Assembly: GCA_034660595.1 (NCBI GenBank)
Contig: JAYEJO010000093.1
Span: 1-38,384 of the forward strand
Source of the DNA: Candidatus Caldatribacteriota bacterium
Lineage (GTDB): Bacteria > Atribacterota > Phoenicimicrobiia > Phoenicimicrobiales > Phoenicimicrobiaceae
Length of the DNA stretch: 38,384 nucleotides
Direction: 5' to 3'
Of the stretch, positions 20,728 to 37,853 are shown in pieces; the stretch's first letter is position 1; every line of letters starts with the position of its first letter. Both the position numbers and the translations under genes were made by a program. The notes under the pieces are model-generated. The model searched no databases. It was not told the DNA's origin and worked only from the letters and a program-made list of their open reading frames with translations.

Positions 20728-20733
20728 ATTTCA

Positions 20734-21666: not shown

Positions 21667-21669
21667 AGA

Positions 21670-22101: not shown

Positions 22102-22123
22102 AAAATCTCCTTTATATTATATC

Positions 22124-22350: not shown

Positions 22351-22390
22351 AAAAAAAAGACACACAATAAATATTTTATTGTGTGTCTTT
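22351..22390 (-). terminator. Rho-independent terminator of rnpB
   Basis: Minus strand reads AAGACACACAATAAaatattTTATTGTGTGTCTT followed by TTTTTTTT. Confidence 0.8.
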
Positions 22391-22405
22391 ATATCTATCT
22401 ATTTT

Positions 22406-22780: not shown

Positions 22781-22801
22781 AAATATTCTTTTTTCAATTT
22801 T

Positions 22802-22830
22802 AAAATACCATTTTAATCTAATAAAGTCAA
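22802..22830 (-). promoter_or_regulatory. Candidate promoter of rnpB
   Basis: Minus strand reads TTGACT-17 nt-(TGg)TATTTT, an extended -10 about 21 nt before the mature 5' end. Confidence 0.4.
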
Positions 22831-22840
22831 TTCTTAAAAT

Positions 22841-22871
22841 AGTATCGAGTATATAGTATTGAGTATCGAGC
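22841..22871. repeat. Class-2 heptamer array (AGTATCG orientation)
   Basis: agtatcg|agtatat|agtattg|agtatcg|agc. Confidence 0.8.
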
Positions 22872-22968
22872 TAAGAAAGAGAAAGATAAGAAATTAAGGG
22901 AAAGTAGAGAAAAGATGTAAGCGTAATCTTTTTAATCTAACTGCCCTACCCAAGTTTATACTAATGAG

Positions 22969-23685
22969 CTAATCTTTCCAAATTAGAATCCGATTGCAAT
23001 TAGGACAAATTAATATCTTTCGATTCTTTTGTAATTGATAAATAACATCACTGGGAAGGTCAAGATAACAGCCTGGACATATAGAACCATCAACTTTTAC
23101 AATGGCTTTTCCGCCTTTCTCTTTTCTTAAAAGTTCATATTCTTTTAAAAGATGGTCATCGGTTATTTTATTTAATATCTCTCCCCTTTTGATATTCAAA
23201 GAGTTCATATTCTTTTCAATACCTAACATTGCAAAATCTATTTCCTCTTTACATTTTTTAAGCTCTTTCTCTTTGCCTTTCAAGTCTTCCTCGAGATTAC
23301 AAACTGATTTATTAAGATCTTCTACTTCTTCCATCATATCTAAAATTTCTTCTTCAATGCCATTTTTTTCTTCTTCGTACTTGGCTATTACCTTTTGTAT
23401 TTGTTTAAGCTCCTTAATATCAGATATCTTTCCTCCGTACAAATCATCTTTATGTTTATTAATTTTATTAGATTTTTCGACTAAATCCAGTTCTTTTCTT
23501 TTTAATTTGATCTGCAAACTCTTATAATTTTCATTTTTATTTTTTAAACTATCCTTCAGCCCCTGAATTTTTTTGGTAATCCCTTCTAACATTAAAGGCA
23601 AACTTTTCTTTTTTTTCTCTTCTTCATCAATATCAATATCAATTTTCTGTAATTCCAAAAGAATATCATATTGTTCTTCTATCAA
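22969..23685 (-). CDS. Coiled-coil / C4 zinc-ribbon protein (COG1579, DUF164-like)
   Basis: 238 aa. A long Glu/Lys-rich coiled coil is followed by CPGC...(19 aa)...CPNC. The start is TTG. Confidence 0.7.
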   Translation of the reverse strand: MIEEQYDILLELQKIDIDIDEEEKKKKSLPLMLEGITKKIQGLKDSLKNKNENYKSLQIKLKRKELDLVEKSNKINKHKDDLYGGKISDIKELKQIQKVIAKYEEEKNGIEEEILDMMEEVEDLNKSVCNLEEDLKGKEKELKKCKEEIDFAMLGIEKNMNSLNIKRGEILNKITDDHLLKEYELLRKEKGGKAIVKVDGSICPGCYLDLPSDVIYQLQKNRKILICPNCNRILIWKD

Positions 23686-23727
23686 TAACCTATTCCTCCT
23701 CTCTTCGTAGTTGCAAAGCCCATTAAA

Positions 23728-23767
23728 ACAAAAAAACCTTACTTCTTATATAAAAGAAGTAAGGTTT
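23728..23767 (-). terminator. Rho-independent terminator after the tRNA
   Basis: Minus strand reads AACCTTACTTCTTttatataAGAAGTAAGGTT followed by TTTTTGTTTT. Confidence 0.8.
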
Positions 23768-23858
23768 TTATAAAATTCTGGTATTTTTATAATTTTTTGT
23801 TTTATCATAAATTCCACACTACCTGTATTATCAATAAAATTAATAATTACCAATTTTT

Positions 23859-23934
23859 TGGTGGGCCCACCTGGATTCGAACCAGGGACCGACCGGTTAT
23901 GAGCCGGTTGCTCTGCCAGCTGAGCTATGGGCCC
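23859..23934 (-). tRNA. tRNA with anticodon CAT (elongator Met type; Ile2/lysidine identity not excluded), CCA encoded
   Basis: I folded the cloverleaf by hand: GGGCCCA ta GCTC agctggca GAGC a ACCGG CTCATAA CCGGT cggtc CCTGG ttcgaat CCAGG TGGGCCC a CCA. G1-C72 is paired, so it is not an initiator. Confidence 0.93.
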
Positions 23935-23959
23935 GTTAGCCAACATTATCTTCGTTAAA

Positions 23960-23987
23960 AGTATATCAGATATGTTTATAAAGTCAA
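23960..23987 (-). promoter_or_regulatory. Candidate promoter of the tRNA
   Basis: Minus strand reads TTGACT-16 nt-(TGa)TATACT, about 25 nt before the tRNA 5' end. Confidence 0.5.
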
Positions 23988-23995
23988 GAATATTT

Positions 23996-24054
23996 TCGTA
24001 TCTCGTATAGAATTAGTTAGCTAGTTAGTTGGTTACCTGGTTAGCCAGTTAAGG
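23996..24054. repeat. Class-2 (TCGTATC) then class-3 (TAGTTAG/GGTTA) arrays
   Basis: ttcgtatctcgtatag..ttagttagctagttagttggttacctggttagccagttaagg. 24017..24044 matches the reverse complement of 14204..14231 at about 27 of 28 positions. Confidence 0.85.
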
Positions 24055-24103
24055 AAATAAAAGAAAGATAAAAGTAGGGGTATATTGCATCCACCCCTGT
24101 AAC

Positions 24104-25132
24104 TTATTTTAGATGCAGGCTCTTTAGCTGACCGCAGGCAGCAGAAATATCATCACCCTTTGATATTCTTATAGTGGTTGGGATCCCTCTGGCGGTCAGC
24201 TTATTTTTAAAGAATTTAACCTGGGAAGCAGTGGGTGCCTGCAGTAAGGAATCGGGTGCAGGATTAAAAGTAATTAAATTTACTTTAGAATTAAATCCAC
24301 CAATCAGTTTAGCTAATTCGTTTGCATAAATCAGTGAATCATTCACTCCTTTAATTAAAATATATTCAAAAGTAATCTGCCTTTTAGTTTTTTCCGCATA
24401 ATTTTTGCACGTTTCTATCAGATCGGGCAAGGGATACATATTATTTACCGGCATTAGGTAAGACCTTAATTTATTCTCCGGGGCATGCAGAGAAACTGAT
24501 AGCTCTATCTGCCAATTACGTTCTTGTAACCTTTTTATTGCCGGTATCACCCCACAGGTAGAAATGGTAATCTTTCTTGCCCCGATATTGAAAGCATCTT
24601 TTGAATTCAATATACAAATGGCTTTTACAACATTATCATAATTATCTAAAGGTTCACCAATGCCCATAAATACAATATTATTGAGATTGGATTCAATCTT
24701 TTTCTTTACAAATAAAACTTGATTTAAAATCTCACTAACTGTAAGGTTTCTGGTAAAGCCTTTTTTACCGCTTTCACAAAACAAACAGTTATATTTGCAG
24801 CCAATTTGGGAAGATATACATTCAGTCGCTCTTTTACCGGAAAATATAAGAACACTTTCTATTAAATTCCCATCTTCTAATTTAAATAAATATTTTTCGG
24901 TTTGGTCTTTCGATTTAGCTAAATTTACCAACCCTATCTTGCTTATGTAAAAATTTTCTTGAAGTAAGTCTCTAAATGATGCTGGAAGACCCAGCATATC
25001 TCCGAAGTCTTCTATCCCTTTCCTATAAAGCAAATCAAATAATTGAGCTGCCCTATATTTTTCAACTCCTAACTTTTTAACCTCTTCTTGTAATTCGTTT
25101 AAGGTAAATTTTTTAATATCTTTCTTTTGCAT
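24104..25132 (-). CDS. rlmN: 23S rRNA/tRNA adenine-C2 methyltransferase, radical SAM (RlmN/Cfr family)
   Basis: 342 aa with the GCKYNCLFCESG (CxxxCxxC) cluster, GIGEPL, ITISTCG, SLHAP and a C-terminal ACGQL. Confidence 0.9.
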   Translation of the reverse strand: MQKKDIKKFTLNELQEEVKKLGVEKYRAAQLFDLLYRKGIEDFGDMLGLPASFRDLLQENFYISKIGLVNLAKSKDQTEKYLFKLEDGNLIESVLIFSGKRATECISSQIGCKYNCLFCESGKKGFTRNLTVSEILNQVLFVKKKIESNLNNIVFMGIGEPLDNYDNVVKAICILNSKDAFNIGARKITISTCGVIPAIKRLQERNWQIELSVSLHAPENKLRSYLMPVNNMYPLPDLIETCKNYAEKTKRQITFEYILIKGVNDSLIYANELAKLIGGFNSKVNLITFNPAPDSLLQAPTASQVKFFKNKLTARGIPTTIRISKGDDISAACGQLKSLHLK

Positions 25133-25150: not shown

Positions 25151-26203
25151 TTATTTTTTAATCTCTCTTTTTATGTTTTCAGCAAATTCTTTTGCTTTTT
25201 TGTCTATCTTCAAGGCATTCATTATTGACCCGGGGTCATTGGCGATAGATGTTAAAGCAAAATAAGGAGGCAATCTGAATCCTTTGTTAATATTTAAGGC
25301 CCCTATTAACTGTTTAGCCACACAATCACTCCCCGAATTTCCGGAAACCACAAGGGAAAATAGAGTTTTATCCCCAAATTTCACCCTCTTATAAAGTACA
25401 GTCATCCTATTTATAACCGCCATAAGCTTTGCGGATATTGCATCGTTATAATTGGGGCATAACCAGATGATACAATCAGCCTCTTCTATCGCGGGGAGAA
25501 TTTCTTTTACCATAATCCCCCCATAAAAACAGCTTTTTTCTTCACTATAATGAATACAGGTTTTATAAGAACACCCCCTGCAGTCTACTACGGTCCCATT
25601 TTCTACGTGGAGTTCTCTTATATCTTCGCCACCAAGGTTTTCTTTTACCATTTTCCAAAGCATAAGAGTATTAGATGTCTTAAACAAACTCGAATGCAGC
25701 ACAAGTATCTTTGGCCTATTAATTAATTTTAAGTTCTCCTTCGTTAATTTTTTTACTAATTCTTTGGCCTGTTCTTGGTAAATCTCTACGAGAGGCAGGT
25801 TATACATTTTTTGCCAGGTTAGAAAATTATTGAGATTTTGATTGGCCTCTACAACCGGATGACCGGGGAATCTACACCCCATCTGATTGGTTAAAAAAAT
25901 TATCTTTTGAGCGGTGCTCTTAGTAAATAGCGCACTCGAACTTTGGATTATAATTACTGCTCTTGAACCTAAAAGGGCATCATCTCCCCTTTTCTTTATT
26001 TTTAAAAGCATTTCAAATAGAGGAATATTAAATCCGCATTCATCTAATTCGATAGCAAATATAATCTTTTTATTTTGTAAATCAACAAGAAAATCCTTAA
26101 TGGTTTTTATAATTGTTAATTGACAATTTTCTGTGGCTATTTTGATGACTTCGGCAAAACTACCCGATATTTTCCCCGGCATAACCAAATAAATCATTTC
26201 CAT
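25151..26203 (-). CDS. Two-domain flavodoxin-fold protein; the C-terminal half resembles NADPH-dependent FMN reductase / iron-sulfur flavoprotein
   Basis: 350 aa. From about aa 165 it reads KILVLHSS...VDCRGCSYKTCIHYSEEKSC...ILPAIEEADCIIWLCPNYNDAISAKLMAVINRM, the FMN-reductase pattern plus a CX2CX4CX8C cluster. The N-terminal ~160 aa is a second alpha/beta domain with no motif I recognise. Confidence 0.6.
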   Translation of the reverse strand: MEMIYLVMPGKISGSFAEVIKIATENCQLTIIKTIKDFLVDLQNKKIIFAIELDECGFNIPLFEMLLKIKKRGDDALLGSRAVIIIQSSSALFTKSTAQKIIFLTNQMGCRFPGHPVVEANQNLNNFLTWQKMYNLPLVEIYQEQAKELVKKLTKENLKLINRPKILVLHSSLFKTSNTLMLWKMVKENLGGEDIRELHVENGTVVDCRGCSYKTCIHYSEEKSCFYGGIMVKEILPAIEEADCIIWLCPNYNDAISAKLMAVINRMTVLYKRVKFGDKTLFSLVVSGNSGSDCVAKQLIGALNINKGFRLPPYFALTSIANDPGSIMNALKIDKKAKEFAENIKREIKK

Positions 26204-26230: not shown

Positions 26231-27475
26231 TTATAAAATATTACCCAATTCCTGATAACTTTCTTTAATTTTCTCTATTAAGTTAACTGGAAGGTCTAAT
26301 CTTTCAATTTCAGTTCCTGATTTAAGCAATCTATTTTTCGCCCCCATAAATACCCCTCCCATAAAGGTTGCACTATAATGCCATTTCCCGCTCATAGTGG
26401 CGATAAGAGGATAACTCCCGGAAGATAAAGCAGGAGCTACATAAGGTTTAAAACCGGTCTTCCTTACTTCCAGGTTTGCTTTTACGGCCTGAGCGGTAAG
26501 CATCTCTGAAAGACTTTCATTATATTTTTTTAAGCTATTAGCAATTACCAAACCCCGGCCATGAGGACCAAAGGCTCTGCCTTCTCGATTATATTCAGCG
26601 GTTTCAGTATTTTGTTTTGAGTAGTAGACTGCCCGGGCATGCATCACTCCTAACCCATATCCTCTTATTTGGTCTGCTGCTAATCCTTTAAAATCAAACT
26701 CTCCGCTTGTGTCTTTACTACCGGTTAGAAAAACAGCTTTACACAATAAGTCTACCGGGTCTGAGATAATTGCAAATATCCCCTTAAACGATTTTTCCCG
26801 GGCTTTTCTGGCATAATCAGAGATTATCTTAGAATTTCCCTCGAACTGCTTCATTCTCACATCTTCCTGTTCTTCTCCCAAAGAAGGAACTCCTACAGTT
26901 GCGCAAAATACAAACATGTCACAATCAAAAATATTCTCTTCTCTTAACTGGTAAACATCAGGAAACCTCCGAACAGTAAAAGGAGAAAATATCTGATTTG
27001 CCTCTAATTCCCATCTTTTTAACGCATTTATATTTTTATCATATATTCCGATAGATTCAATACAACTTCCTCCTAATAATCTCAAGCCGGTAAGGAGGGT
27101 TCCTCCTACATCACCCAATCCTACAATATTCACTTTCCACCGGGAGGGAAATTTATAAGTTAACACATCTTGCCAGTTAAGGTATTCGGTATTAAGTGAA
27201 CTCAATCTTTTTTCTTTTATTCTTTGATTAAGCCATGGGGGTAAATCATAATCAATTTTCTTGGATTTTTGCAGCAGGTGGATGCCCTCTTCTTTTAAAA
27301 AGATTAGTGATGGGTCAGTAATACTAAAATATCTTCTGGATTTTAAGGGGTTTATCCGGTTAAGTACATAAATTATTTCTTTGCTCTCTTTGGCTTCGAT
27401 TTCGGATATTCTATTTAATTCACTGTATTCCGATTGGGAAATTAGTATTTTATCTTTTAATTTATAGAAGAACAT
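26231..27475 (-). CDS. Lactate/malate dehydrogenase-fold protein with ~110-aa N-terminal extension
   Basis: 414 aa. VNIVGLGDVGGTLLTGLRLLG is a Rossmann GxGxxG, SDPVDLL corresponds to the LDH NPVD segment, and HAR and GPHG correspond to the Arg171 and His195 regions. The alignment is by eye only. Confidence 0.6.
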   Translation of the reverse strand: MFFYKLKDKILISQSEYSELNRISEIEAKESKEIIYVLNRINPLKSRRYFSITDPSLIFLKEEGIHLLQKSKKIDYDLPPWLNQRIKEKRLSSLNTEYLNWQDVLTYKFPSRWKVNIVGLGDVGGTLLTGLRLLGGSCIESIGIYDKNINALKRWELEANQIFSPFTVRRFPDVYQLREENIFDCDMFVFCATVGVPSLGEEQEDVRMKQFEGNSKIISDYARKAREKSFKGIFAIISDPVDLLCKAVFLTGSKDTSGEFDFKGLAADQIRGYGLGVMHARAVYYSKQNTETAEYNREGRAFGPHGRGLVIANSLKKYNESLSEMLTAQAVKANLEVRKTGFKPYVAPALSSGSYPLIATMSGKWHYSATFMGGVFMGAKNRLLKSGTEIERLDLPVNLIEKIKESYQELGNIL

Positions 27476-27500
27476 CTTTAATTTTCCCCCTCACCCTAAC

Positions 27501-27521
27501 CCTCTCCCTCCGGGGGAGAGG
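27501..27521. repeat. GC-rich hairpin CCTCTCCC-tccgg-GGGAGAGG
   Basis: 8-bp perfect stem, 25-45 nt upstream of the LDH-like start codon on the transcribed strand. Confidence 0.6.
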
Positions 27522-27537
27522 AAATAAAGAATATTTG

Positions 27538-27570
27538 TTTAGCGTAGAGCGTACAGCGTTTAGCGTATAG
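27538..27570. repeat. Class-1 heptamer array, left arm of a foldback
   Basis: tttAGCGTAGAGCGTACAGCGTTTAGCGTATAG. Confidence 0.85.
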
Positions 27571-27633
27571 AAATACAATAGTATATTATAAATAATTTTA
27601 TAGTAATTTTGGAATTGTTGGTTATAATTAGAT

Positions 27634-27710
27634 GTAGGGGCACAATGAATTGTGCCCTCCCCATATTGTTACTTAAAATCTCTTGAGGGCACGATGCATC
27701 GTGCTCCTAC
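27634..27710. repeat. Pair of REP-like hairpins (GTAGGGGCAC...GTGCCC / GAGGGCAC...GTGCTCCTAC)
   Basis: 27634..27658 reads GTAGGGGCACAATGAATTGTGCCCT, the exact reverse complement of 5710..5734. 27685..27710 reads GAGGGCACGATGCATCGTGCTCCTAC. The two hairpins are mutually inverted. Confidence 0.8.
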
Positions 27711-27784
27711 ATTATAATACTTCTTTTATTCTTTCTTCTTTTTGCCTAACGAGCTAACTATTTCTATACTATATACTAATTTTC

Positions 27785-27816
27785 CTATACGCTACACGCT
27801 AAACGCTATCCGCTAT
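27785..27816. repeat. Class-1 heptamer array, right arm of a foldback; overlaps the stop codon and last codons of the megaprotein ORF
   Basis: ctatacgctacacgctaaacgctatccgctat. Its reverse complement matches 1266..1297 at 30 of 32 positions. Confidence 0.85.
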
Positions 27817-30800
27817 TTTTCTTCTGTCTGCTATCCCTTTGGTACGCCGTAAAAGTTCAAGGCTATTTCCTAAATAATGAGAAGGACTAAGATTTAAATT
27901 ATACTCCATATCTTCTCCCTGGTCAGGATATCGGGGATAAATAATTACTTCTCCCAAATGATCAAGTGTCAATTTCCTTTGTTGAATTACCTGGTATTCA
28001 TTTTCCAGAGCTTCTATTATAGTTAAGGCATTTTCAATACAAACTTCGGAAAAATTATAGACGGTTTTTGCAGAAACATTTTTAATAAATGAAGGGAAAG
28101 TATAGGGTAGTATCTGATTAACAGATCTAACTAAATTTCCCTGAGTCCTTATTTTTCTCTTTAATGCGTCTCCGCCAATAAAGGGATACAATTCACTTTC
28201 ATTAAACCAAAGCCTGAGATTGGGAATAAAATGGGCACAATCAACATCTCTATTTAATATAGTTGCTATCTCTTTTCCACTACCGGATAGTGCTCCTACA
28301 ATTATTTTTTTGATTTTAATATCATATTCTTTAAATAGGGGCTCAAGGGTCTTTATTCTATGCCCTTTATGTAAATAGTCATCAATAAGAATTACGGGCA
28401 TATCAAATGAATGAATCACCTTAACCTGATTTTCCAGGCTCATATAATTGGGGAAGGCATCAATCTCAAAACTTCTCATATCGGAAGCAAATATTTTTTC
28501 CGTATGGAGAGATTTAGTTACCGTGTTAGGTACTACCATCTTATGTAGTATCTTCCCAAAGGGCACACACATTGACTTTCCTAAAGTTCGAGGGGTTAAC
28601 GGCGTTGTGGAAACATTATTTATCTTACAAATTTTCTTTACAATAGTCTGGTTGATTAAATTTATATTAAATGGTAAAACAACATTCCCGGGATAAAAAG
28701 TAGTAAGTGATCTTAATAATCGTTTACGGGATACTATAACTGATTTTTTGATGTTTAAATTTTGGCAGAAAGGTTCTTTTATTATAGTCTCGGTATCCAG
28801 ATTGACTATACAGGGTTTACTCATATCCACTACAAATACCGGATTATCTTTATCGCTGAAAGGTAAGCGATAAAACCCCGTAAGTTCTAAATTCTCGTTT
28901 AAAGAAGTCAAAGGGTAATCATTTAATATGTTCCTGAATATTGCATAATCATAATCTTTCTCTATACAGAAAGACAAGGTTTCGGTAAGAATAGCCTGCT
29001 CAAGATTTTCAAGTCCTGATCCATTTTCCATATCACTTACGGTAAAAATACCATCAATAACTATAGTACGGCCAACTGAATTTTCCCGGATATACTCAGA
29101 TATTAAATTATCCTTAAACTCCTGGAAAAGAATGTTTGAACGAACCCAATGAAAGGCTGAAAACCCTAATATCTTTCCATTATGGCGGACATCACGTAAC
29201 AGTAGAATTCTCGGGTTTAATTTACGAGTAAACTCAAGCAATTTTTTGGATGCTTTATTTTGATTATATTTAGAAAGTACTTTCTGACAAAGTTCTTTTA
29301 TTAAATTCGGGATAATATCTTCAATTACCTGCACATCAGTAGAGATAGTCTGTATTATACTCTTATATTGTGGCTCTCTCTGGTATAAACTATTTTCATA
29401 AATATATTTTTGGGCTAAAGGGTCGATAAGTCTGGAAATATCTCTATTTTCATCAATATTATTTCTTATCTGAGTTGAACTTATTTCTTCATAACAAGGT
29501 GTAAGATTAAGTCTTATCATCTCTCCCTTTATTTCTTTAATAGCTTCTTGAATCCTTTCTTCTTTCTCATCTGCAATATGTGGGGTTTTTCTATCAAAAA
29601 TAATATGAGAAAAAGTATGTATGAAATTTTTTCTTTTATTTTTTTGGTAAGCTGAAGCATTTAATACAACATCACTGCCTACTACAATGTAAACCTCGGA
29701 AAAGGGGAAATTTTCTCTCAAAGTCTTTAAATCATCCGGATTGGCAATATTAACCGGTAAATCTTCAGGATATAAATATACATTAAGTTCATCGGCAATA
29801 GAAATATTTATTATATTCTTTCTGAAGAGGTGTGGTTGAGTTCTTTTAGACCAGGAAAATTCATCAACTGCTAAATATATTTCAAATCCGAGTATTTCTA
29901 TTGCTTTTATAATCTCTTTATGGCTTAAGGAAAATGGGTCAAAAGCTCCTGGGAAGAAAGCTATTTTGTCTGGGATTTCAAGGTTTATGCTCCCCTTGAA
30001 AAAATTGTAATCAGAGATAAATTTATACATATATTTAAGCCCAATACAATTTATTAAAAACATCAGGCCTTCTTTATTTACAGGAGCCAACAGTGTAAGA
30101 ATTTTTTTAGCAATAAGTTTAAATATATGGTTTTTCTCTTCTAAGCTGAGATGTCTTGAACCAAATATTTCCTTACCAATAACTCTAAATGCTGCCTGTT
30201 TCACCTTTAAATTATAGTGTACAAAGCCATTCAAAAGAATACCAATCATCTTGCTAAGCCTGTTTTCATATGATTTCTCTTCTTCTGAAAATCTTTCCCG
30301 GTACTTAGGGTAATTAGCAATGGCTATACCGATGGTTCTAAGAAGTAATGAGCTTAATTTGGGATCTGATTGTTTGATTTTTTCTATTAAATCATCAACA
30401 AGTTCCTCTAACTCATTAGGTCTAAGATAGAGTATTAATTGACCCAAATAGTAAGGAATATATTTAGTAAACTGATAATCTTCCATTTCTAAAGCCCGTA
30501 ATAGTTCAATGGCTATATCATTCCTCTGTTGAAAAGATAAGGAAGGCATTAAATTTACAAGAGCTTTACCGGCCAAATTTCTAATATCTTCTATGCCGCT
30601 AACTTTCAAAATATTACAAAAATGCAAAGCAGTGTAGATTTCTTCCTGCTTGCTCTTTAGGGTATGTTCTAATAAAAGTTCTATCTGGATTTTTTTAATT
30701 ATTCCACTGGTTGAAGTTTTAAGGTTACTTAGAAATATATACTGTATCTTTTCTATATCCCTTCGATAAAATTCGATATACTTCTTTACGATACTTTCGT

Positions 30801-32739
30801 CCAAATTTAATAATTCAACTATCTTCATATTTAAATAATTTTCGGCAGGGAACTCTGAGGCAGAAATATTACCAGTAAATATTTTTCTTAAGTTATTTAT
30901 AAATCTAAAATTTTTATCAATTCGAGGCGTTAAATCATAGACTACCTCTAAAGCAGTAAGTCTAAGTTTAGGATTCTCCTTCTTTAACATTTTTATAATA
31001 TAATCAAATAATACCTTTACGGATTTTTCATCTGAGCAGATTGATACATGTTTGGCGGTTTTTATCAAACACAGTTGGATTTCGTCATTGGTATACAGGT
31101 GCTTTTTATAGTGTTTTAAAATACTTTTTCTGTAATTGCTTACCTGATGATTATTGCGACAGTTAGAAAAAAGAGAAGAAATCATATTCTCAGTACTATC
31201 AATAATTCGAGATTGATGAAAAGCAATCTTTTTATGGTCCGGCTGTAAAAAATATTTTAAATATCTTTCCAATAAATTAACACTGGTAATCGCGGGAGGT
31301 TTTAGGGTAACGTTCTGAGGAATCTCTTTGCGGTAATCTTCGTCAAAACTGGCAATTAATAAACCGATAAGTTTTGCGCTCCTCCTTCTTATTTCATCTT
31401 CCGGATGAGTTAACTGTTCGTATAAATATCTCAGGGTAATCATCTTCTGTTTTTGAGTCAAGTAGGCAGAATACTCATTGAATATTTGTAGATATTCCCG
31501 TAGATTGTTCCAATCTTTTTCACTTCGAGCTAATTCCAAAAGTGAATTAAGAGAAGACTCATCTCGAAGTTCGTGCATTAAATTTATATTATGTTCTATG
31601 GAAAGAAATTTTATATTCTGGATAACTTCCTGGCCCTGCATGAGAGGATAATACGGTTTTCTATCTTTCTTATAAGGACTTATCCCTTCCTTCTCTACAT
31701 CTACATTTACCCCTAAATTTATCATATAATCTTCAAAGTCTTTTAATTTCTCGTAAACTCGGCAATATCTTTTTCTTTTTTCCTCATCAACATTATCCAG
31801 TTTGTCTAAAATTACTTGAAAAGAATCTTTCAGGCTAAAAATTCTCATCTCCTCTTTGGGCCCGTTAATAATATTTTTAACCCGAAAATCAGAATAAATT
31901 AATATAAGTGATTCTAAAGGTAAATTTTCTAATTCTAAATCCCAAACAGAATGATTAACTGCAATATGTCCGATATAAGGGATATTATGTTTTTTAAACC
32001 ACATATCGGTATAGTAATAATGTAAATGGGGAGTTCTTTCTACCTCAATGTCCTTGCATCCATATTTTCCGATATCATGCCCTGCTGCTGCTCCCGAAAT
32101 CCTCCCCAAATCCACGGGAAGACCCAGATTATATAACTGCCTGCCGATAAACAAAGCAATCCAATTTACCCCGCATATATGGTCTAAAGTATTGAACTTT
32201 AAAATTTCCTGGCTTAATTTCATCATCTCATAGATATATTCATCATTAAATGCTTTTAAAAATCTTTTATATTCAGCAGGGTTCTCCAGTTTGCTTTTTT
32301 CGTCAAAAGTTAAAAAATTAAGGGGATATTTGCCGTGAAAAGTAGAATCACCGGACGACTTTTGGAACTTCAAAATTACTCTTAAAAATTCTAAATAGAG
32401 TAAGAAAGCTTTTCGGCAATCAGGGGAGATATCCTTAACAGATAGATCTACTGTTTCGGGAAAAGATTTATATAGGGTAAATTGATAAACCTTATAAAGC
32501 CAGTTAGAGGAATTATGTTTTTTGTCTATATTAACAAGCAAGTCTTTACACAAAGAATATACTGCCTGACAGGTGTAATTTTTATTTTCTACCATAGATG
32601 ATAATTGTTTTAAAAATAGAGGATTTTCGATATATTTTCTAACCAACTCTTTATCTAAAGAAATATTATCCAATATCTGTGTGTGTAAAATCTTTTTAGA
32701 TATTTTTTTATATAATTCTTTAACCGTAGTTTTGCTCAT
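27799..32739 (-). CDS. 1,646-aa multidomain protein of unknown function: HD phosphohydrolase + helical repeats + NadD/NMNAT-like nucleotidyltransferase + GNAT-like + PRTase-like
   Basis: Single uninterrupted ORF with an ATG start and an AGGATGG RBS.
- HD domain: LDHICG...GAAAGHDIGKYG...YSDF (aa ~187-285).
- NadD-like domain: FFPGAFDPFSLSH (aa 928-940) and EEISSTQIRNNIDENRDISRLIDPLAQKYIYENSLY (aa ~1084-1119).
- PRTase-like domain: MPVILIDDYLHKGHRIKTL (aa ~1447-1465).
That this is a real CDS is well supported; the product call is motif-level only. Confidence 0.85.
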   Translation of the reverse strand: MSKTTVKELYKKISKKILHTQILDNISLDKELVRKYIENPLFLKQLSSMVENKNYTCQAVYSLCKDLLVNIDKKHNSSNWLYKVYQFTLYKSFPETVDLSVKDISPDCRKAFLLYLEFLRVILKFQKSSGDSTFHGKYPLNFLTFDEKSKLENPAEYKRFLKAFNDEYIYEMMKLSQEILKFNTLDHICGVNWIALFIGRQLYNLGLPVDLGRISGAAAGHDIGKYGCKDIEVERTPHLHYYYTDMWFKKHNIPYIGHIAVNHSVWDLELENLPLESLILIYSDFRVKNIINGPKEEMRIFSLKDSFQVILDKLDNVDEEKRKRYCRVYEKLKDFEDYMINLGVNVDVEKEGISPYKKDRKPYYPLMQGQEVIQNIKFLSIEHNINLMHELRDESSLNSLLELARSEKDWNNLREYLQIFNEYSAYLTQKQKMITLRYLYEQLTHPEDEIRRRSAKLIGLLIASFDEDYRKEIPQNVTLKPPAITSVNLLERYLKYFLQPDHKKIAFHQSRIIDSTENMISSLFSNCRNNHQVSNYRKSILKHYKKHLYTNDEIQLCLIKTAKHVSICSDEKSVKVLFDYIIKMLKKENPKLRLTALEVVYDLTPRIDKNFRFINNLRKIFTGNISASEFPAENYLNMKIVELLNLDESIVKKYIEFYRRDIEKIQYIFLSNLKTSTSGIIKKIQIELLLEHTLKSKQEEIYTALHFCNILKVSGIEDIRNLAGKALVNLMPSLSFQQRNDIAIELLRALEMEDYQFTKYIPYYLGQLILYLRPNELEELVDDLIEKIKQSDPKLSSLLLRTIGIAIANYPKYRERFSEEEKSYENRLSKMIGILLNGFVHYNLKVKQAAFRVIGKEIFGSRHLSLEEKNHIFKLIAKKILTLLAPVNKEGLMFLINCIGLKYMYKFISDYNFFKGSINLEIPDKIAFFPGAFDPFSLSHKEIIKAIEILGFEIYLAVDEFSWSKRTQPHLFRKNIINISIADELNVYLYPEDLPVNIANPDDLKTLRENFPFSEVYIVVGSDVVLNASAYQKNKRKNFIHTFSHIIFDRKTPHIADEKEERIQEAIKEIKGEMIRLNLTPCYEEISSTQIRNNIDENRDISRLIDPLAQKYIYENSLYQREPQYKSIIQTISTDVQVIEDIIPNLIKELCQKVLSKYNQNKASKKLLEFTRKLNPRILLLRDVRHNGKILGFSAFHWVRSNILFQEFKDNLISEYIRENSVGRTIVIDGIFTVSDMENGSGLENLEQAILTETLSFCIEKDYDYAIFRNILNDYPLTSLNENLELTGFYRLPFSDKDNPVFVVDMSKPCIVNLDTETIIKEPFCQNLNIKKSVIVSRKRLLRSLTTFYPGNVVLPFNINLINQTIVKKICKINNVSTTPLTPRTLGKSMCVPFGKILHKMVVPNTVTKSLHTEKIFASDMRSFEIDAFPNYMSLENQVKVIHSFDMPVILIDDYLHKGHRIKTLEPLFKEYDIKIKKIIVGALSGSGKEIATILNRDVDCAHFIPNLRLWFNESELYPFIGGDALKRKIRTQGNLVRSVNQILPYTFPSFIKNVSAKTVYNFSEVCIENALTIIEALENEYQVIQQRKLTLDHLGEVIIYPRYPDQGEDMEYNLNLSPSHYLGNSLELLRRTKGIADRRKIADSV

Positions 32740-32893
32740 TAATTACCATCCTAAAACATTTTATAGATTAATCATTTTATCCTATTTTAGGTCCATCAAT
32801 TTAAGGCATCACTCAGAAAAGATTTAACCTTTTCTTTTGAATATTGCACAAAAATGGTAAATATATATTAATAATAATTCTTTTATAATATTT

Positions 32894-32923
32894 ATTATAA
32901 CTGAAAACTACCGCATTTTACAA
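32894..32923 (-). promoter_or_regulatory. Candidate promoter of the megaprotein gene
   Basis: Minus strand reads TTGTAA-18 nt-TATAAT. This would give a 5' leader of about 150 nt. Confidence 0.3.
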
Positions 32924-33070
32924 TTAAATAAGATATTTACATATACGAGGATATTTAAGAATATCTTATATGGCTCCTGTATTCCAGTGGAGGATTTATT
33001 AGATCGGGAGATAATAGGGGAAACATAATTCTTATTGCAATTTATTATTTCTTTATTTTAAAATGGTTTT

Positions 33071-34270
33071 CTATTCTTTTGTTTTAACCTTCTCGAATGT
33101 TCCAAATTTCATAATTTTTTCATTTTCCATCATAATTTTACCTTTAGCAATAACATGTTTTATTTGAAGAGTGTTCTTATCCAATACTATTAGATCTGCA
33201 TCTTTGCCTTCTTTTATTTCTCCTTTTTGCTCTAATTTTAGATGTTTGGCAATATTCGTAGAACTTACTCTTACTGCGTCTTGTACAGACATTTTTTCTT
33301 TTTTTATTATATCAATAAATTCTTTGTATAAAGAAGAGACTGAAGCAACAGTCATACCAGTAATTTCTTTCTTTTCATTAAATTTAGGCATACTACCATT
33401 TCCATCTGTACTTATAGTAATTCTTTCTATAGAAACTCCATTTCTAACAAGCCTTTTAATAACCTTACTTGGTTTTAATCTTCCATTTAACTCATCCTCT
33501 TCTGGGATCCCAGTAGTTAAATCTATATACCCACCAATTTTACCAAACTCTATAGCACTTTTAAACAAATCTTCATTTCTATTTAAATGGGTTGGCGCAA
33601 ACTGCTCTATTGGTATTTCAGTGTTTTTTGTAATCTCAAATAGTGGATTTAATCCTATCTTTTCGCTTCCTATATGAATATGTACAATGCCCACTTTCCC
33701 TGTTAACATCCCGCCAACTCTTGCCTTAGATGTCACCTTCGTTAATTCATCTACTGTAGTATGAGAAGATCTATGATCTGATAAGGAAATTTTTACTCCA
33801 ATTACTTTATCTATCAACATTATATCAGATAATATATCTCCGGTAATTGTTGGCGAAGGATATTGATAAGCTCCGGTATATATCCATGTACTTATACCTT
33901 CATTTTCCAATCCTTTCGCTTTCATTAAAAGAGCTTTCAATGATCTGGCAAAACCATCTGTGCCTAACAATCCTATTACTGAGGTTATTCCTGCTTTGAT
34001 AAATTCACTTAATTGAATTGGCGGCGTGCGGTATTGGGGGCCACCTTCTCCCCCAGCACCATTAATGTGGACATGTTGATCTATAAAACCAGGAATAACT
34101 ATACACTTTGAAGCATCAATTATTTTTATATTTTTATCTAATGAATTTGCAGCTGACTCTGTAATATTTTGGTCAATTAAAAATATTTTGTTATTTGCAA
34201 TAAGTATATCTTTATTTCCATCATATTCAGGTGAATATATTTCTCCTCTTTTCATTAATATAAAATTCAT
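33071..34270 (-). CDS. iadA: Isoaspartyl (beta-aspartyl) dipeptidase
   Basis: Collinear with E. coli IadA as I recall it: PGFIDQHVHINGAGGEGGP, GITSVIGLLGTDG, GVKISLSDHRSS, THLNRN, STDGNGS, GKDADL. The track start is GTG 34282, inside the GGAGG RBS. The ATG at 34270 is preferred. Confidence 0.9.
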   Translation of the reverse strand: MNFILMKRGEIYSPEYDGNKDILIANNKIFLIDQNITESAANSLDKNIKIIDASKCIVIPGFIDQHVHINGAGGEGGPQYRTPPIQLSEFIKAGITSVIGLLGTDGFARSLKALLMKAKGLENEGISTWIYTGAYQYPSPTITGDILSDIMLIDKVIGVKISLSDHRSSHTTVDELTKVTSKARVGGMLTGKVGIVHIHIGSEKIGLNPLFEITKNTEIPIEQFAPTHLNRNEDLFKSAIEFGKIGGYIDLTTGIPEEDELNGRLKPSKVIKRLVRNGVSIERITISTDGNGSMPKFNEKKEITGMTVASVSSLYKEFIDIIKKEKMSVQDAVRVSSTNIAKHLKLEQKGEIKEGKDADLIVLDKNTLQIKHVIAKGKIMMENEKIMKFGTFEKVKTKE

Positions 34271-34350
34271 TTCAACCTCCACATATTTGTCAACTATTTC
34301 TCAATAATTATTTTAAACTTTCCTAAGCAAAAATAAATAAATCCTACCTT

Positions 34351-35244
34351 TTATTCGCCCACTTTACCTTTTGTAATTTTAGGATTAATTTCTTCCCTTA
34401 ACCAATCTGCTAATAAATTAACACCAAATACTATCAATACCAATGCTATCCCAGGAAAAACAACGAGCCACCATTTTCCAGCATAAATATAATTTTTCCC
34501 TATAGATATCATCATTCCAAGAGACGGCTCATTTATCGGAACTCCTACACCAAGAAAACTTAGTGTAGCCTCCAGCATAACTGCAGCTCCAAAATCGACA
34601 GCAGCAACTACCAATATGGGCGGTATTGCATTAGAAAGAATATGTTTAAACATAATCCTTAAATCATTAGCTCCAATCGCCCTTGCGGCACTAATGTAAT
34701 CCTCTTCTTTTACACCGAGAACGGATCCTCTCATTGTTCTTGCATATCTTACCCAATCAGTAATAATTATAGCTAAGATCACTGTGCCAATACCATGGTT
34801 CTTTAGAATTCCTAAAAATAGCATAGCTATCAAGGTAGTAGAAAAGGAAAATATAGCATCTGCTAATCTCATTGTTACAGCATCTAATAAGCCTCTATAA
34901 AATCCTGCTAAAAGGCCGACAGTCACGCCTACTGTTCCAGCGATAATAATCACGCTAAAACCAACAGTAAATGATGTTCGGCAACCATAAAGTATGGTAC
35001 TTAATATATCTCTTCCTTGATCATCGGTGCCTAAAATAAAGGGAGCTTCTCCGCCTTCCATCCAAATAGGTGGTTTTAGAGAATCCTCTAAATAAAGACC
35101 TTCCATATCATATGGATTTTGCGGAGCAATTATAGGAGCAAAAATAGCCCCGGCTAACATAATTATAAGAATTAAAGAACCTGTTACTGCTGATATATCT
35201 TTAATATAATGATAAAATCTTTTTGATTTAAAAATTCTAATCAC
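34351..35244 (-). CDS. Peptide/nickel-type ABC transporter permease (DppC/OppC-like)
   Basis: 297 aa, about 6 TM helices, N-terminal OppC-type segment (GTDDQGRDILS) and EAA-loop region (ISAARAIGANDLRIMFKHILSNA). The start is GTG with an AGGTG RBS. Confidence 0.9.
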   Translation of the reverse strand: MIRIFKSKRFYHYIKDISAVTGSLILIIMLAGAIFAPIIAPQNPYDMEGLYLEDSLKPPIWMEGGEAPFILGTDDQGRDILSTILYGCRTSFTVGFSVIIIAGTVGVTVGLLAGFYRGLLDAVTMRLADAIFSFSTTLIAMLFLGILKNHGIGTVILAIIITDWVRYARTMRGSVLGVKEEDYISAARAIGANDLRIMFKHILSNAIPPILVVAAVDFGAAVMLEATLSFLGVGVPINEPSLGMMISIGKNYIYAGKWWLVVFPGIALVLIVFGVNLLADWLREEINPKITKGKVGE

Positions 35245-35253
35245 AATTTACAC

Positions 35254-36222
35254 CTATTCATATCTTATTTTAGGATTAATATACCCATATAGAATGTCCA
35301 CAATAAGGTTTGCGCAGAGAATAAGAATAGAAGTAATCATTACGTAGGCAACTATAACTGGATGATCTGTTTCATATACTGCTGTTAGCAATAAATTTCC
35401 TGCCCCAGGCCATTGGAATATACTCTCTGTTACTATCGAAAATGCTATTAATTCCCCAAATTGCAAACCTGCCATTGTTACTACTGGGATAAGCGCATTT
35501 CTTAATGCATGTTTAAATATTATAATTTTTGGTGGCAAGCCTTTTGCCCAAGCAGTTCTTATATAATCCTCTCTTAACACTTCTAACATTCCTCCTCTTG
35601 TTAATCGGAGAAGTACTGCAAGTTGATAAATGCCCAAGGTAAAAGCTGGGAGAATTAAATGCCGAAGACCACCTACTGTCAAAAAGCCAGTTCTCCAGTT
35701 TCCTGCTATTTTTATTACTTCACCCCGCCCAAAGGTAGGCAAAAATCCTAATTTAACTGAAAAAATCATAATAAGTAATATTCCAATTAAAAAAGTAGGA
35801 AGGGAAATTCCAAAAAGTGATCCGGCCATAATAAGCCTATTTATAAAGTATCGAGGATTTAATGATACTAATACTCCAAGACCAATTCCTAATATAAGAG
35901 CTATAAGCATAGCACTAATAGCCAGTTCAATACTTGCTGGTAACCTTTCCAAGATAAGTGCAAGAACAGGAGTCTGAGCAACATAAGATAATCCGAAATC
36001 GCCACGGAGAGCATTCTTCAAAAAAACAAAATATTGAATATAAAAAGGTTTGTCCAAACCCATTTTACTCCTAACTTCTTCCTGCTGCGCCTGTGTAGCA
36101 TAGCGACCTGCTAGGGTAAGCACGGGGTCTCCGAAAAACTGAAAAATACCAAAACACACAAACGAAACAACAAGAAGGACTACAACTCCTTGCATTAATC
36201 TTCTGACAATACATTTATACAT
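35254..36222 (-). CDS. Peptide/nickel-type ABC transporter permease (DppB/OppB-like)
   Basis: 322 aa. The EAA-loop region is EDYIRTAWAKGLPPKIIIFKHALRNALIP. Confidence 0.9.
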   Translation of the reverse strand: MYKCIVRRLMQGVVVLLVVSFVCFGIFQFFGDPVLTLAGRYATQAQQEEVRSKMGLDKPFYIQYFVFLKNALRGDFGLSYVAQTPVLALILERLPASIELAISAMLIALILGIGLGVLVSLNPRYFINRLIMAGSLFGISLPTFLIGILLIMIFSVKLGFLPTFGRGEVIKIAGNWRTGFLTVGGLRHLILPAFTLGIYQLAVLLRLTRGGMLEVLREDYIRTAWAKGLPPKIIIFKHALRNALIPVVTMAGLQFGELIAFSIVTESIFQWPGAGNLLLTAVYETDHPVIVAYVMITSILILCANLIVDILYGYINPKIRYE

Positions 36223-36225
36223 AAT

Positions 36226-36288
36226 AAAATAAAAGGTGGTTGAGGTTAATACTGACTAACATAATTAAAAATTATTAGCCTCAACCAC
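36226..36288 (-). terminator. Intra-operon stem-loop / partial terminator after the binding-protein gene
   Basis: Minus strand reads GTGGTTGAGG-33 nt-CCTCAACCAC followed by CTTTTATTTTATT. Confidence 0.45.
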
Positions 36289-36299
36289 TATTTTGCCCC

Positions 36300-37853
36300 C
36301 TATTTCTTAAGTGAAATTTCTTTGAAAAGTATCCAGGTGTCTGCCCGAGGTGTAAACTCTATACCTCGTCCTTTGTAAACAGCATATGAATCTTCTTGAT
36401 AGTGAAGGGGAATAATCGCTATCTTATCATTCATAGCAATTCTGTTTAATAGCCTTAACTTATCCGCCCTTACTTTGGGATCGACTATTAGGGCTGATTC
36501 TTCGAGAAGCTTATCCAATGTTGCATCACTATATTCAGCACCGTTCAAACCGCCATAACCTTTCTCTACATTAACGCTATGTATTAATTTGGTAAAAGAA
36601 CGGCCATAATCATAAGATCCGTCAAACCACCCTATCAGATAGAAATCCAGTATATGTTCATCTAATTCAGGGAAGAAGATTGCTTTTGGCTTAGTATCAA
36701 GCTCTACTTTAATTCCAACTTTTGAAAGTTGCTTTGCTACTGCCTCACAAATCTGTGCATCTCGAACATATCTGTCATTGGGACCAGTAAGTTTTATATT
36801 AAAACCATCGGAATATCCCGCTTCAGCAAGCAATAATTTCGCCCTTTCAGGATCGTAAGCTGGACGTTTAAGCGAAGAATCATAACCAACGGTTGGTGGA
36901 TCTGGAATCTGAGCAGCTGGAAATGCATGTCCGAACATTACCTTTTCAATTATCTCATCTTCATTGATTGCCAAGTATATTGCTTTTCTTACTCTAATAT
37001 CACTGGCTGGAAAACCCGGTTCGTTTCTAAGACCTAAATATATAGCTCTTCTCGCAGGACGAGTAACTACTTCTATATTAGCATTACTCGCAACGGTTTC
37101 AAAAAGTTCGACAGGTACATCCTGCAGAATATCTACTTGTCCGGTTGCAATAGCAGCTAAACGGGTAGATGGTTCCGTAATCGGAGTAATTACGGCATTC
37201 TTAATCGAAGGTGCTTCACCCCAATAATTTTCATTTGCGGTTAATTTAAGATAAGAGCCCTTTACCCATTCAACAAATTTATAAGGACCGGTTCCAATTG
37301 GGTTTTGTCCTATCTCTCCAATAGAACGGGATTCAGTAGATTCCTTATCCATAATAAAGACTTGATGTAGGTTTTGCACAAAGTAAGGAATCGGTATTGT
37401 TGTTTTTACATTTATGGTCCATGGATCGCCATTAACTGTTTCAACCGATTTTATTATTCCTCCAAAGGCTAAAAATTCTGACACTGGATAGGGTTCTTTT
37501 AATCTATTGAATGTAAATTTGACATCCTCCCAGGTAAAATCGTTACCATTGTGAAATTTTACTCCCTTTCTTAGGGTAAATCGCCAGGTTGTATCATCTG
37601 TTCTTTCCCAAGAAGTTGCTAATCCAGGCTTAAGTTCACCTGCGGCATCCCTGTATAAAAGACCTTCAAATATATTACCCATCACAGAAAGATTACAATC
37701 AGAGTCTGATCCGTGAGGATTCATAGTTTGTGGAGGTGAACCTACTGCAACATTTATACTATCTTTGCCGGCAGCAATTCCACCCACAAAAACAGTCATG
37801 ATCAATCCTAAAACTAAAAGCAAAATAACAATAATAGATGTTAATTTTTTCAT
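36300..37853 (-). CDS. ABC transporter substrate-binding protein, family 5 (DppA/OppA-like)
   Basis: 517 aa with an N-terminal signal/anchor helix and no lipobox Cys, and SBP_bac_5-type sequence throughout. RBS is AGGAGG. Confidence 0.9.
   Translation of the reverse strand: MKKLTSIIVILLLVLGLIMTVFVGGIAAGKDSINVAVGSPPQTMNPHGSDSDCNLSVMGNIFEGLLYRDAAGELKPGLATSWERTDDTTWRFTLRKGVKFHNGNDFTWEDVKFTFNRLKEPYPVSEFLAFGGIIKSVETVNGDPWTINVKTTIPIPYFVQNLHQVFIMDKESTESRSIGEIGQNPIGTGPYKFVEWVKGSYLKLTANENYWGEAPSIKNAVITPITEPSTRLAAIATGQVDILQDVPVELFETVASNANIEVVTRPARRAIYLGLRNEPGFPASDIRVRKAIYLAINEDEIIEKVMFGHAFPAAQIPDPPTVGYDSSLKRPAYDPERAKLLLAEAGYSDGFNIKLTGPNDRYVRDAQICEAVAKQLSKVGIKVELDTKPKAIFFPELDEHILDFYLIGWFDGSYDYGRSFTKLIHSVNVEKGYGGLNGAEYSDATLDKLLEESALIVDPKVRADKLRLLNRIAMNDKIAIIPLHYQEDSYAVYKGRGIEFTPRADTWILFKEISLKK

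Follow-up and report, generated by a model that had tools for sequence, protein, structure and literature searches.

The window analysed here is a stretch of 38,384 nucleotides of contig JAYEJO010000093.1 (assembly GCA_034660595.1) from a Candidatus Caldatribacteriota bacterium of the phylum Atribacterota, and our subject is a minus-strand gene in it that encodes a multi-domain protein of 1,646 amino acids (aa), below called the megaprotein. An initial annotation, made from the sequence alone, had described it as an orphan gene that stands alone between two repeat-filled spacers and fuses five regions: an HD phosphohydrolase, a series of HEAT/ARM-like helical repeats, a NadD/NMNAT-type nucleotidyltransferase (NTase), a possible GNAT-like fold and a type I phosphoribosyltransferase (PRTase)-like fold. 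The single unbroken open reading frame (ORF) of 4.9 kb is confirmed by the ORF list and its translation, and all five fold calls were upheld by Pfam and NCBIfam scans, by profile searches against solved structures, and by AlphaFold2 (AF2) models compared with Foldseek. The picture of an isolated orphan had to be given up, since its homologues form more than 2,600 clusters, relatives occur in at least 190 species, and its gene is the first of a conserved three-gene cluster.

The megaprotein belongs to a widespread, uncharacterised family of multi-domain proteins of ~1,600 aa, in which N-terminal helices are followed by the HD domain, a HEAT/ARM-like solenoid, the NadD/NMNAT-clade NTase, the GNAT-like domain and the type-I-PRTase-like domain (Table 1). 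Neither a characterised member nor a paper on the family was found in the literature searched. On the same strand, the adjacent ORF upstream ends at position 33071 and the one downstream starts at 27475, leaving two spacers of the lengths originally described.

Table 1. Features of the window; the positions count from its first nucleotide, and aa ranges refer to the megaprotein.
Feature	Positions	Strand	Basis and remarks
Megaprotein ORF	27799..32739	minus	1,646 aa, ATG start, uninterrupted; first gene of the conserved three-gene module
N-terminal helical region, aa 1-139	32323..32739	minus	AF2 model of the N-terminal half; mean column identity 0.36, poorly conserved
Predicted HD phosphohydrolase domain, aa 140-345	31705..32322	minus	Pfam HD in relatives, invariant ligands
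HEAT/ARM-like alpha-solenoid, aa 370-914	29998..31632	minus	AF2 all-helical, Foldseek, weak Pfam HEAT
NadD/NMNAT-clade NTase domain, aa 915-1127	29359..29997	minus	GxFDPF[ST]L[SG]H, DEFSWSK, GSD..Y1031, ISSTxIR
GNAT-like fold, aa 1128-1335	28735..29358	minus	AF2 topology, Foldseek; column identity below that of the three enzyme-like domains
Type-I-PRTase-like alpha/beta domain and C-terminal helices, aa 1336-1640	27820..28734	minus	VILVDD strand, HKG[YH]R loop
LDH/MDH-like NAD-binding dehydrogenase, second gene	26231..27475	minus	414 aa; profiles, conserved position
FMN_red-family flavoprotein, third gene	25151..26203	minus	350 aa; four invariant Cys, conserved position
Upstream spacer, 331 bp	32740..33070	.	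AT-rich, presumed promoter region
Downstream spacer, 323 bp, with inserted palindromic element	27476..27798	.	Heptamer arrays, spacer comparison
Heptamer array sites	1269-1298, 11668-11680, 18137-18156, 18282-18308, 18488-18512, 27537-27570, 27785-27814		
Glycine riboswitch aptamer	965-1066	minus	Above Rfam gathering score
Bacterial RNase P class A RNA	22404-22778	minus	Above Rfam gathering score
tRNA gene	23862-23934	minus	Above Rfam gathering score

Family distribution and the three-gene module

In a collection of 5.8 billion proteins the homologue clusters were counted at an expectation value (E) of 1e-3 or lower, and the best 120 of the more than 2,600 clusters are nearly all full-length (~1,625-1,660 aa), bar three truncated entries. 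The megaprotein is 84-91% identical to proteins from Atribacterota metagenome bins and 51-57% identical to those of cultured Clostridia (Tepidibacter, Thermohalobacter, Crassaminicella, Alkaliphilus, Caloramator, Fonticella and Caminicella), and the identity between Atribacterota and Clostridia amounts to ~55% across 1,640 aa. The species count was obtained by scanning one genome per GTDB species, and the carriers are strict anaerobes. Among the matches listed, those from Clostridia belong to Peptostreptococcales-type taxa, Oscillospiraceae, Lachnospiraceae and Clostridiaceae, and the others to Negativicutes (Megasphaera, Acidaminococcaceae), Atribacterota and one Flexilinea bin. Oscillibacter, Dysosmobacter, Anaerotignum, Megasphaera and Lachnospiraceae are included among the gut carriers, and Atribacterota from the subsurface carry the protein too. 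Sedimentibacter saalensis, Proteiniclasticum ruminis and Clostridium tunisiense are examples of cultured carriers of the module. The relatives are named 'cytidyltransferase' or 'nicotinate-nucleotide adenylyltransferase' in the databases.

We fetched 85 loci, 70 of which were informative in that they had at least 2.6 kb of downstream sequence. A gene for a lactate dehydrogenase (LDH)-like protein lies directly downstream of the megaprotein gene in 66 of the 70, and a gene for an FMN_red-family flavoprotein is present too in 63. Co-variation with the LDH-like and flavoprotein genes, which the initial annotation had put forward as a point to survey, is thus strongly positive. The gap between the megaprotein and LDH-like genes has a median of 12 bp and there are many 4-bp overlaps, which fits translational coupling. 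An identical gene order is found in Tepidibacter, a second Atribacterota genome, Candidatus Formimonas and Crassaminicella, with the LDH-like gene (413-417 aa) within 11-37 bp and the FMN_red gene (348-351 aa) after it. Both partners are missing from one of two paralogues in Crassaminicella (L005) and from loci L010, L066 and L079, the neighbourhoods of which have no common replacement genes; at L028, L048 and L053 the flavoprotein gene alone is missing. When all flanking ORFs in the 85 loci were clustered no fourth conserved gene emerged, and the surroundings vary by lineage; the three genes therefore form a self-contained module.

The LDH-like partner shares an LDH-type Rossmann domain and a substrate-loop Arg with the L-2-hydroxyacid dehydrogenases of the LDH/malate dehydrogenase (MDH) family. 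Its invariant features are a GDVG dinucleotide-binding loop, R207, R281 and H305. In the alignment R207 corresponds to the Arg in the substrate loop 'GETRLDL' of LDH, and SDPVD replaces the NPVD of LDH. From motif reading alone, R281 and H305 occupy the positions of the carboxylate-binding Arg and the catalytic His of LDH, and the position of the catalytic partner Asp is taken by Met. The C-terminal, catalytic half of the protein was not recognised by LDH profiles. The flavoprotein partner, for which no solved structure was found by sequence (including a profile search of the Protein Data Bank, PDB), carries an invariant motif C208-x2-C211-x4-C216-x8-C225 situated ~45-60 residues into its flavodoxin-like domain. 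It resembles the iron-sulfur flavoprotein (Isf), with which it has the FMN_red fold and a compact four-Cys motif in common; the cluster motif of Isf sits at a similar place in the domain. Unlike Isf and the LDH/MDH enzymes, both partners have extra N-terminal regions of ~110-160 aa.

Crassaminicella thermophila (CP042243.1) carries the two paralogues (L004 and L005) mentioned above, one of them in a normal three-gene module. The paralogue without partners, which is abutted upstream by an APH/fructosamine-kinase-like gene, has panD on one side and panB, accompanied by a DUF2520 Rossmann gene, on the other, and panC is not present in its 20-kb locus. At the Flexilinea locus (L071; a Chloroflexota metagenome-assembled genome from goat jejunum) the LDH-like gene lies ~1.4 kb downstream and is followed by the flavoprotein gene. 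The genes were either acquired horizontally from Clostridia or assigned to this bin in error.

The varied genomic neighbourhoods of the module would also be expected of an anti-phage or conflict system acting through the production or destruction of NAD or a nucleotide signal, and HD, NTase and PRT-like domains are commonly combined in the large multi-domain proteins of nucleotide-centred defence systems. We consider such a role highly improbable. None of the three proteins matches PADLOC-DB at E<=0.01, and the conservation across phyla given above is very high, unlike that of fast-evolving defence genes. Moreover, the gene is single-copy, it lies beside the cell-division cluster in Atribacterota, and mobile-element genes are not consistently adjacent.

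Domains and active sites of the megaprotein

The N-terminal and C-terminal halves of the protein were modelled separately with AF2 (predicted local distance difference test, pLDDT, 88 and predicted template modelling score, pTM, 0.85 for the N-half; pLDDT 78.9 and pTM 0.81 for the C-half), and the Foldseek listings were dominated by ARM/HEAT matches for the former and NadD matches for the latter. Conservation was assessed in an alignment of 68 full-length proteins, each from a different species. Searches of the PDB with the full-length protein and with a 40-member profile gave NadD and phosphopantetheine adenylyltransferase (PPAT) structures and one marginal HD match only, leaving the HEAT, GNAT and PRT regions unmatched. 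The ~1,400 residues outside the NTase domain are covered by no Pfam or NCBIfam model, and no dedicated family model was found.

The NTase domain is recognised by Pfam CTP_transf_like (E 1.6e-4) and by the NCBIfam NadD model TIGR00482 (E 1.3e-11). The best 46 Foldseek matches of the C-half in the PDB are all NadD/NMNAT, with E-values down to 9e-8 and target-relative template modelling (TM) scores of 0.66-0.77, and the NadD-like domain of the initial annotation is well borne out by matches at this E-value and TM 0.72-0.77. A profile built from 82 species matched VPA0413 (3h05) at E 4.5e-9 and, over the whole domain, the Plasmodium falciparum NaMNAT at E 3.6e-8; PPAT structures were matched at E 3e-6 through the N-terminal motif only. 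At the (H/T)xGH site, [ST]937-L-[SG]939-H940, the His is invariant, position 937 is Ser in 51 and Thr in 17 of the 68 proteins, and the Gly is replaced by Ser in 50, the window protein included. The ISxTxxR signature is present as ISSTQIR, with S1087 and R1092 invariant and S1088 found in 67 of 68. In the alignment with the P. falciparum enzyme Y1031 falls on the Trp of the NadD 'GxD...W' segment, which we take to be the base-stacking residue known from NadD structures. VPA0413, the best sequence match (NCBIfam PRK08887), has the same P-S-L-G-H form of the (H/T)xGH motif and the same W-x-K segment, where canonical NadD has PPHK. It differs in being a single-domain protein of 177 aa, and it provides no functional anchor, as its PDB name is 'uncharacterized protein' and no paper on it was found in the literature searched.

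Pfam HD (PF01966) matched 19 of 29 divergent members (best E 2e-5) but not the window protein at E<=1. Against the PDB, an HD profile from 81 species matched only three proteins, one OxsA-like (0.02) and one of the HD-GYP kind (0.047), both at marginal E-values, and a third. The predicted HD fold is called from sequence profiles together with conserved ligands. The metal-ligand pattern H...HD...D is present: H187, H221-D222 and D284, as pointed out initially, are invariant across 68-81 species, and so are H240 and H263. By analogy with HD-GYP, PgpH and YqeK-type enzymes, these six candidate ligands may constitute a two-metal centre. No NCBIfam match to YqeK (COG1713) was obtained at E<=1, nor did the 81-species profile find a YqeK structure in the PDB at E<=10; by these sequence comparisons the domain is not of the YqeK type.

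The combination of an NadD-like and an HD domain raises the question of whether the megaprotein is a housekeeping nicotinate mononucleotide (NaMN) adenylyltransferase, that is NadD fused to a YqeK-like HD domain and some extra domains, serving ordinary NAD biosynthesis. The public names of relatives, the NadD/NMNAT matches as the best of aa 915-1127 in both profile and structure searches, and the existence of NadD-YqeK fusions are in line with such a role. However, the NTase scores well below half of every NadD equivalog cut-off; other NadD models, including PRK00071, give 18-34 bits against cut-offs of 150-197, so that the family cut-off is missed. The lack of YqeK matches noted above also argues against it, as does the confinement of the family to strict anaerobes, a restricted distribution where NadD is near-universal. 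Furthermore, two copies occur in one genome, and the LDH-like and flavoprotein partners play no part in the NadD step. Canonical nadD or yqeK genes were not found within the fetched flanks of the loci. Taken together, we regard the housekeeping role as improbable.

Between the HD and NTase domains the AF2 model of the N-half is all-helical, with ~26 successive helices predicted at high confidence in aa 370-914. The best 50 Foldseek matches of this half are all ARM/HEAT proteins (importins, CAND1, SF3B1, the PP2A scaffold subunit and designed armadillo proteins), and weak Pfam HEAT matches are present in 13 of 29 members, which agrees with the helical repeats of the initial annotation.

In the C-half model aa 1134-1314 follow the GNAT order beta-alpha-alpha-beta-beta-beta-alpha-beta-alpha-beta with one insertion. 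Foldseek matched the N-acyl amino acid synthase FeeM (2g0b; E 5e-5, TM 0.62) and more than 10 viral GNAT acetyltransferases, and Pfam Acetyltransf_1 (PF00583, GNAT) was the commonest match among the isolated domains, yet found in 7 of 81 members. These observations favour the GNAT-like fold that had been proposed as a possibility. The pyrophosphate-binding loop for acetyl-CoA (Q/R-x-x-G-x-G/A) is missing between the fourth strand and the next helix, where the sequence is SDMENGSGLENLEQ.

Citrate lyase ligase (CitC) likewise has GNAT-like and cytidylyltransferase folds in one chain, its GNAT-like domain being paired with the same NTase fold. By comparison with CitC and PPAT, the NTase might form an acyl-adenylate or adenylylate phosphopantetheine, with the GNAT-like domain binding a CoA-like moiety and the PRT-like and HD domains handling a phosphoribosyl group, as in the prosthetic group of citrate lyase. 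A Foldseek match to a viral 'citrate lyase ligase' (E 8e-4), one Pfam Citrate_ly_lig match, one PanZ match, the PPAT structures found by the NTase profile, and the location of the second Crassaminicella paralogue between panB and panD all point in this direction. We nevertheless hold it to be rather unlikely. The NadD/NMNAT matches are stronger and span the full domain, in contrast to the N-terminal match to PPAT, the domain order is opposite to that of CitC, and the matches to CitC and PanZ are isolated and weak. Only one locus has pan genes as neighbours, and unrelated genes are interposed there. Neither citrate-lyase genes nor genes for acyl carrier protein, CitG or CitX-like proteins are conserved near the megaprotein gene.

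The PRT-like domain has the hydrophobic beta-strand, acidic pair, loop and helix that are typical of type I PRTases (PF00156; orotate phosphoribosyltransferase, OPRT, and phosphoribosyl pyrophosphate, PRPP, synthetase). In the AF2 model a loop and then a helix come after the strand P-V-I-L-V-D-D, the acidic pair of which consists of D1453 (invariant) and D1454 (in 65 of 68). The ribose-phosphate (R5P) loop of PRPP synthetase aligns with 'rpVilvDDllhkGyR'. Within the loop G1459 is found in 65 of 68 and R1461 is invariant. Of 71 C-terminal domains searched in isolation, 29 were matched by Pfam Pribosyltran (PF00156) and 3 by the family next in frequency, and the C-half model gave one weak Foldseek match, to an OPRT-containing UMP synthase (E 6e-3). 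With many weak Pfam matches, the modelled topology and this one structural match behind it, the PRT-like fold of the initial annotation is retained as a prediction. The domain differs from type I PRTases in that HKG[YH]R takes the place of their [ST]-G-x-[ST] loop, in its sub-threshold sequence matches, and in occurring almost only within the megaprotein family. An exhaustive HMMER search with aa 1125-1646 returned 374 clusters at 50% identity, the complete ones nearly all of ~1,600 aa, and no stand-alone relatives with known function. As nearly all of the complete sequences share the same architecture, the C-terminal GNAT/PRT module is essentially confined to the family.

A family-wide loss of catalytic residues, which would have implied a purely structural protein, is absent. 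In addition to the candidate metal ligands, K225, D267 and R286 of the HD domain are invariant in all 68 proteins (the full HD set thus being H187, H221, D222, K225, H240, H263, D267, D284 and R286). The invariant residues are G931, F933, D934, P935, H940, W963, G1021, D1023, Y1031, S1087 and R1092 in the NTase domain, and N1405, T1406, T1408, K1409, D1453, R1461 and E1514 in the PRT-like domain. Mean column identity is 0.67 for the HD and NTase domains, 0.62 for the PRT-like domain and 0.50 for the solenoid, as compared to 0.35-0.40 for the GNAT-like domain, the least conserved of the assigned domains, and 0.36 for the N-terminal 139 aa. With active-site residues that do not vary among the 68 species, three domains (HD, NTase and PRT-like) look catalytically active.

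This conservation bears on whether the megaprotein could be a regulatory or scaffolding protein. Its nucleotide-binding folds would then be sensors, like the PRT fold in PurR and PyrR, or would attach a nucleotidyl group to a protein and take it off again, like GlnD, and the solenoid would hold the LDH-like and flavoprotein partners and control their activity. A HEAT/ARM solenoid of ~550 aa is a typical protein-binding scaffold, the tight and often overlapping gene pairs suggest a stoichiometric complex, and the non-canonical PRPP loop and the GNAT-like domain without an acetyl-CoA loop fit as well. Pairs of NTase and HD domains that write and erase a nucleotidyl mark are also known, from GlnD and SpoT. 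On the other hand, the invariant HD ligands and NTase catalytic motifs point to catalysis rather than mere binding, the second Crassaminicella paralogue occurs without the partners, and the substrates of NTases with this fold are, to our knowledge, carboxylates or small phosphorylated molecules rather than proteins. A regulatory or scaffolding function therefore appears unlikely.

Possible function of the module

The reading that we favour, tentatively and at somewhat less than even chance, is that the module is dedicated to the synthesis and turnover of an adenylylated ribonucleotide (dinucleotide-type) metabolite and that this is coupled to the two redox partners. The PRT-like domain would bind or make a mononucleotide bearing ribose-5-phosphate, and the NadD-like domain would adenylylate the phosphate of this mononucleotide to give a dinucleotide-type product. 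The HD domain could then cleave the pyrophosphate or phosphoester bond of the product, or of a mis-made analogue. The solenoid would keep the active sites together and perhaps dock the two partners, and the LDH-like and flavoprotein partners would either carry out a redox reaction on this metabolite or exploit one.

A phosphoribosyltransferase followed by an adenylyltransferase, with an HD domain that hydrolyses or proofreads the product, is also what the initial annotation had envisaged, and that part is consistent with the folds and with the precedent of NadD-YqeK (PMC9426524). In mycoplasma NadD-YqeK fusions the HD domain hydrolyses nicotinic acid adenine dinucleotide (NaAD) as well as its cytosine and uracil analogues (PMC9426524), which gives the proposal that the HD domain polices NadD products an experimental precedent. 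Less likely is simple NAD or diadenosine tetraphosphate (Ap4A) chemistry, against which speak the HD domain that is not YqeK-like, the HKG[YH]R loop, the GNAT-like domain without an acetyl-CoA loop, and an NTase score of 44.8 versus 112 bits.

The pairing of an NadD-like transferase with an HD hydrolase is a known one, which is here greatly elaborated and tied to two redox proteins. NadD-YqeK, found as a fusion or an operon pair in Firmicutes and mycoplasmas (for example JCVISYN3A_0380; PMC9426524), and the megaprotein both combine an NadD-type adenylyltransferase with an HD phosphohydrolase, both have conserved HD metal ligands and, with the substitutions at the (H/T)xGH site given above, ATP-binding motifs, and in both the HD domain may credibly hydrolyse the dinucleotide products of the NTase or Ap4A-like compounds. 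In the megaprotein, however, the HD domain comes first and a HEAT-like solenoid of ~550 aa precedes the NTase, GNAT-like and PRT-like domains are added along with the two redox gene partners, no match to a YqeK model or structure was obtained for the HD domain, and the NTase falls far below the NadD cut-offs.

A number of observations weigh against the production of a dinucleotide-type metabolite by the module. The GNAT-like domain is left without a role in the proposed mechanism, and the TIGR00482 score of 44.8 bits is to be set against a curated equivalog cut-off of 112.45. The phosphate-binding loop of the PRT-like domain, L-H-K-G-[YH]-R, has no Ser or Thr where the canonical [ST]-G-x-[ST] would be, the Pribosyltran matches are all weak (best E 4e-3), and the PRTases known to act on nicotinate and nicotinamide belong to type II rather than type I. 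The window protein itself has no Pfam match to HD, GNAT or PRT families, so that the support for these three calls is drawn from relatives and models, and Foldseek was queried with whole half-models, for each of which the best 50 matches were listed. Finally, no riboswitch or leader was found ahead of the gene at the Rfam gathering score, either in the window or in 8 related loci.

A more far-reaching version of the proposal holds that the module is a self-contained pathway that builds, redox-modifies and recycles an undescribed dinucleotide-type cofactor or signalling nucleotide specific to strict anaerobes, among them Atribacterota and the abundant Clostridia and Negativicutes of the gut. 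We consider this version doubtful.

Surroundings of the module and wider meaning

Both spacers had been called repeat-filled, and this applies to the downstream spacer with its heptamer arrays; the upstream one contains short AT-rich matches alone. In the downstream spacer, inverted (TAGCGTN)3-4 arrays at 27537-27570 and 27785-27814 flank hairpins at 27632-27712. In most relatives the corresponding junction measures -4 to +60 bp, and a similar spacer (363 bp) is found only in the closest Atribacterota bin (L006). The 323-bp spacer is thus a lineage-specific insertion that splits the megaprotein gene from its LDH-like partner. The heptamer array encodes the final five codons and the stop codon of the megaprotein ORF, which is probably why the protein has 1,646 aa as compared to the 1,641 aa of most listed Atribacterota homologues. 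In a promoter and terminator scan the counts were not above those of shuffled sequence and a terminator was found in neither spacer. Since the downstream spacer has no terminator-like site, co-transcription with the partner genes may persist.

Heptamer arrays are also present in other intergenic regions of the window, with 11 matches to GTTTAGCGTATAG (<=2 mismatches) where 0.8 would be expected. They are mostly inverted around cores of ~200 bp, those of the 18-kb and 27-kb copies being different, and look like a family of elements of this Atribacterota lineage similar to miniature inverted-repeat transposable elements (MITE) or repetitive extragenic palindromes (REP). A G-rich segment, ctctcccccggagggagagggttagggtgaggggg, occupies 27476-27540 on the minus strand directly before the ATG of the LDH-like gene and is near-identical in L006. 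Possibly this segment forms a structured region for ribosome binding, which either arrived with the element or was kept after its insertion.

Upstream of the module, the minus strand of 33071-37853 encodes an isoaspartyl dipeptidase (TIGR01975, E 3.7e-147) together with the binding protein and two permeases of a peptide ABC transporter of the Opp type. These genes do not precede the module in L002 and L013, the two other Atribacterota loci with upstream sequence. Downstream, 20287-25132 (minus strand) holds genes for RlmN, a CT398-like zinc-ribbon protein, MraZ and RsmH, and by synteny with L002 this stretch is the start of the cell-division (dcw) cluster. The module also adjoins the dcw cluster in L002, there without an intervening RlmN gene.

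Some additional genes recur near the module in the fetched loci, namely glutamate dehydrogenase (8 loci), FAA hydrolase (6), a Fur-family regulator (5) and rubrerythrin (5), among them loci L015, L018, L046 and L057. The Fur-family and FAA-hydrolase copies, and most of those of glutamate dehydrogenase, are situated a few hundred bp upstream. These recurrent neighbours probably represent lineage synteny. The pairing of the Fur-family and rubrerythrin genes could hint at a link to peroxide stress, or may be lineage synteny as well.

In size and conservation the megaprotein family ranks near the top of the bacterial proteins without known function, and metabolic reconstructions that trust its database label would probably mis-assign a step of NAD biosynthesis. 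As the conserved operon is a small clonable unit, its function is directly testable. If the module does make or police a nucleotide cofactor, this would add a missing piece to the metabolism of anaerobes and widen the known association between NadD and HD hydrolases.

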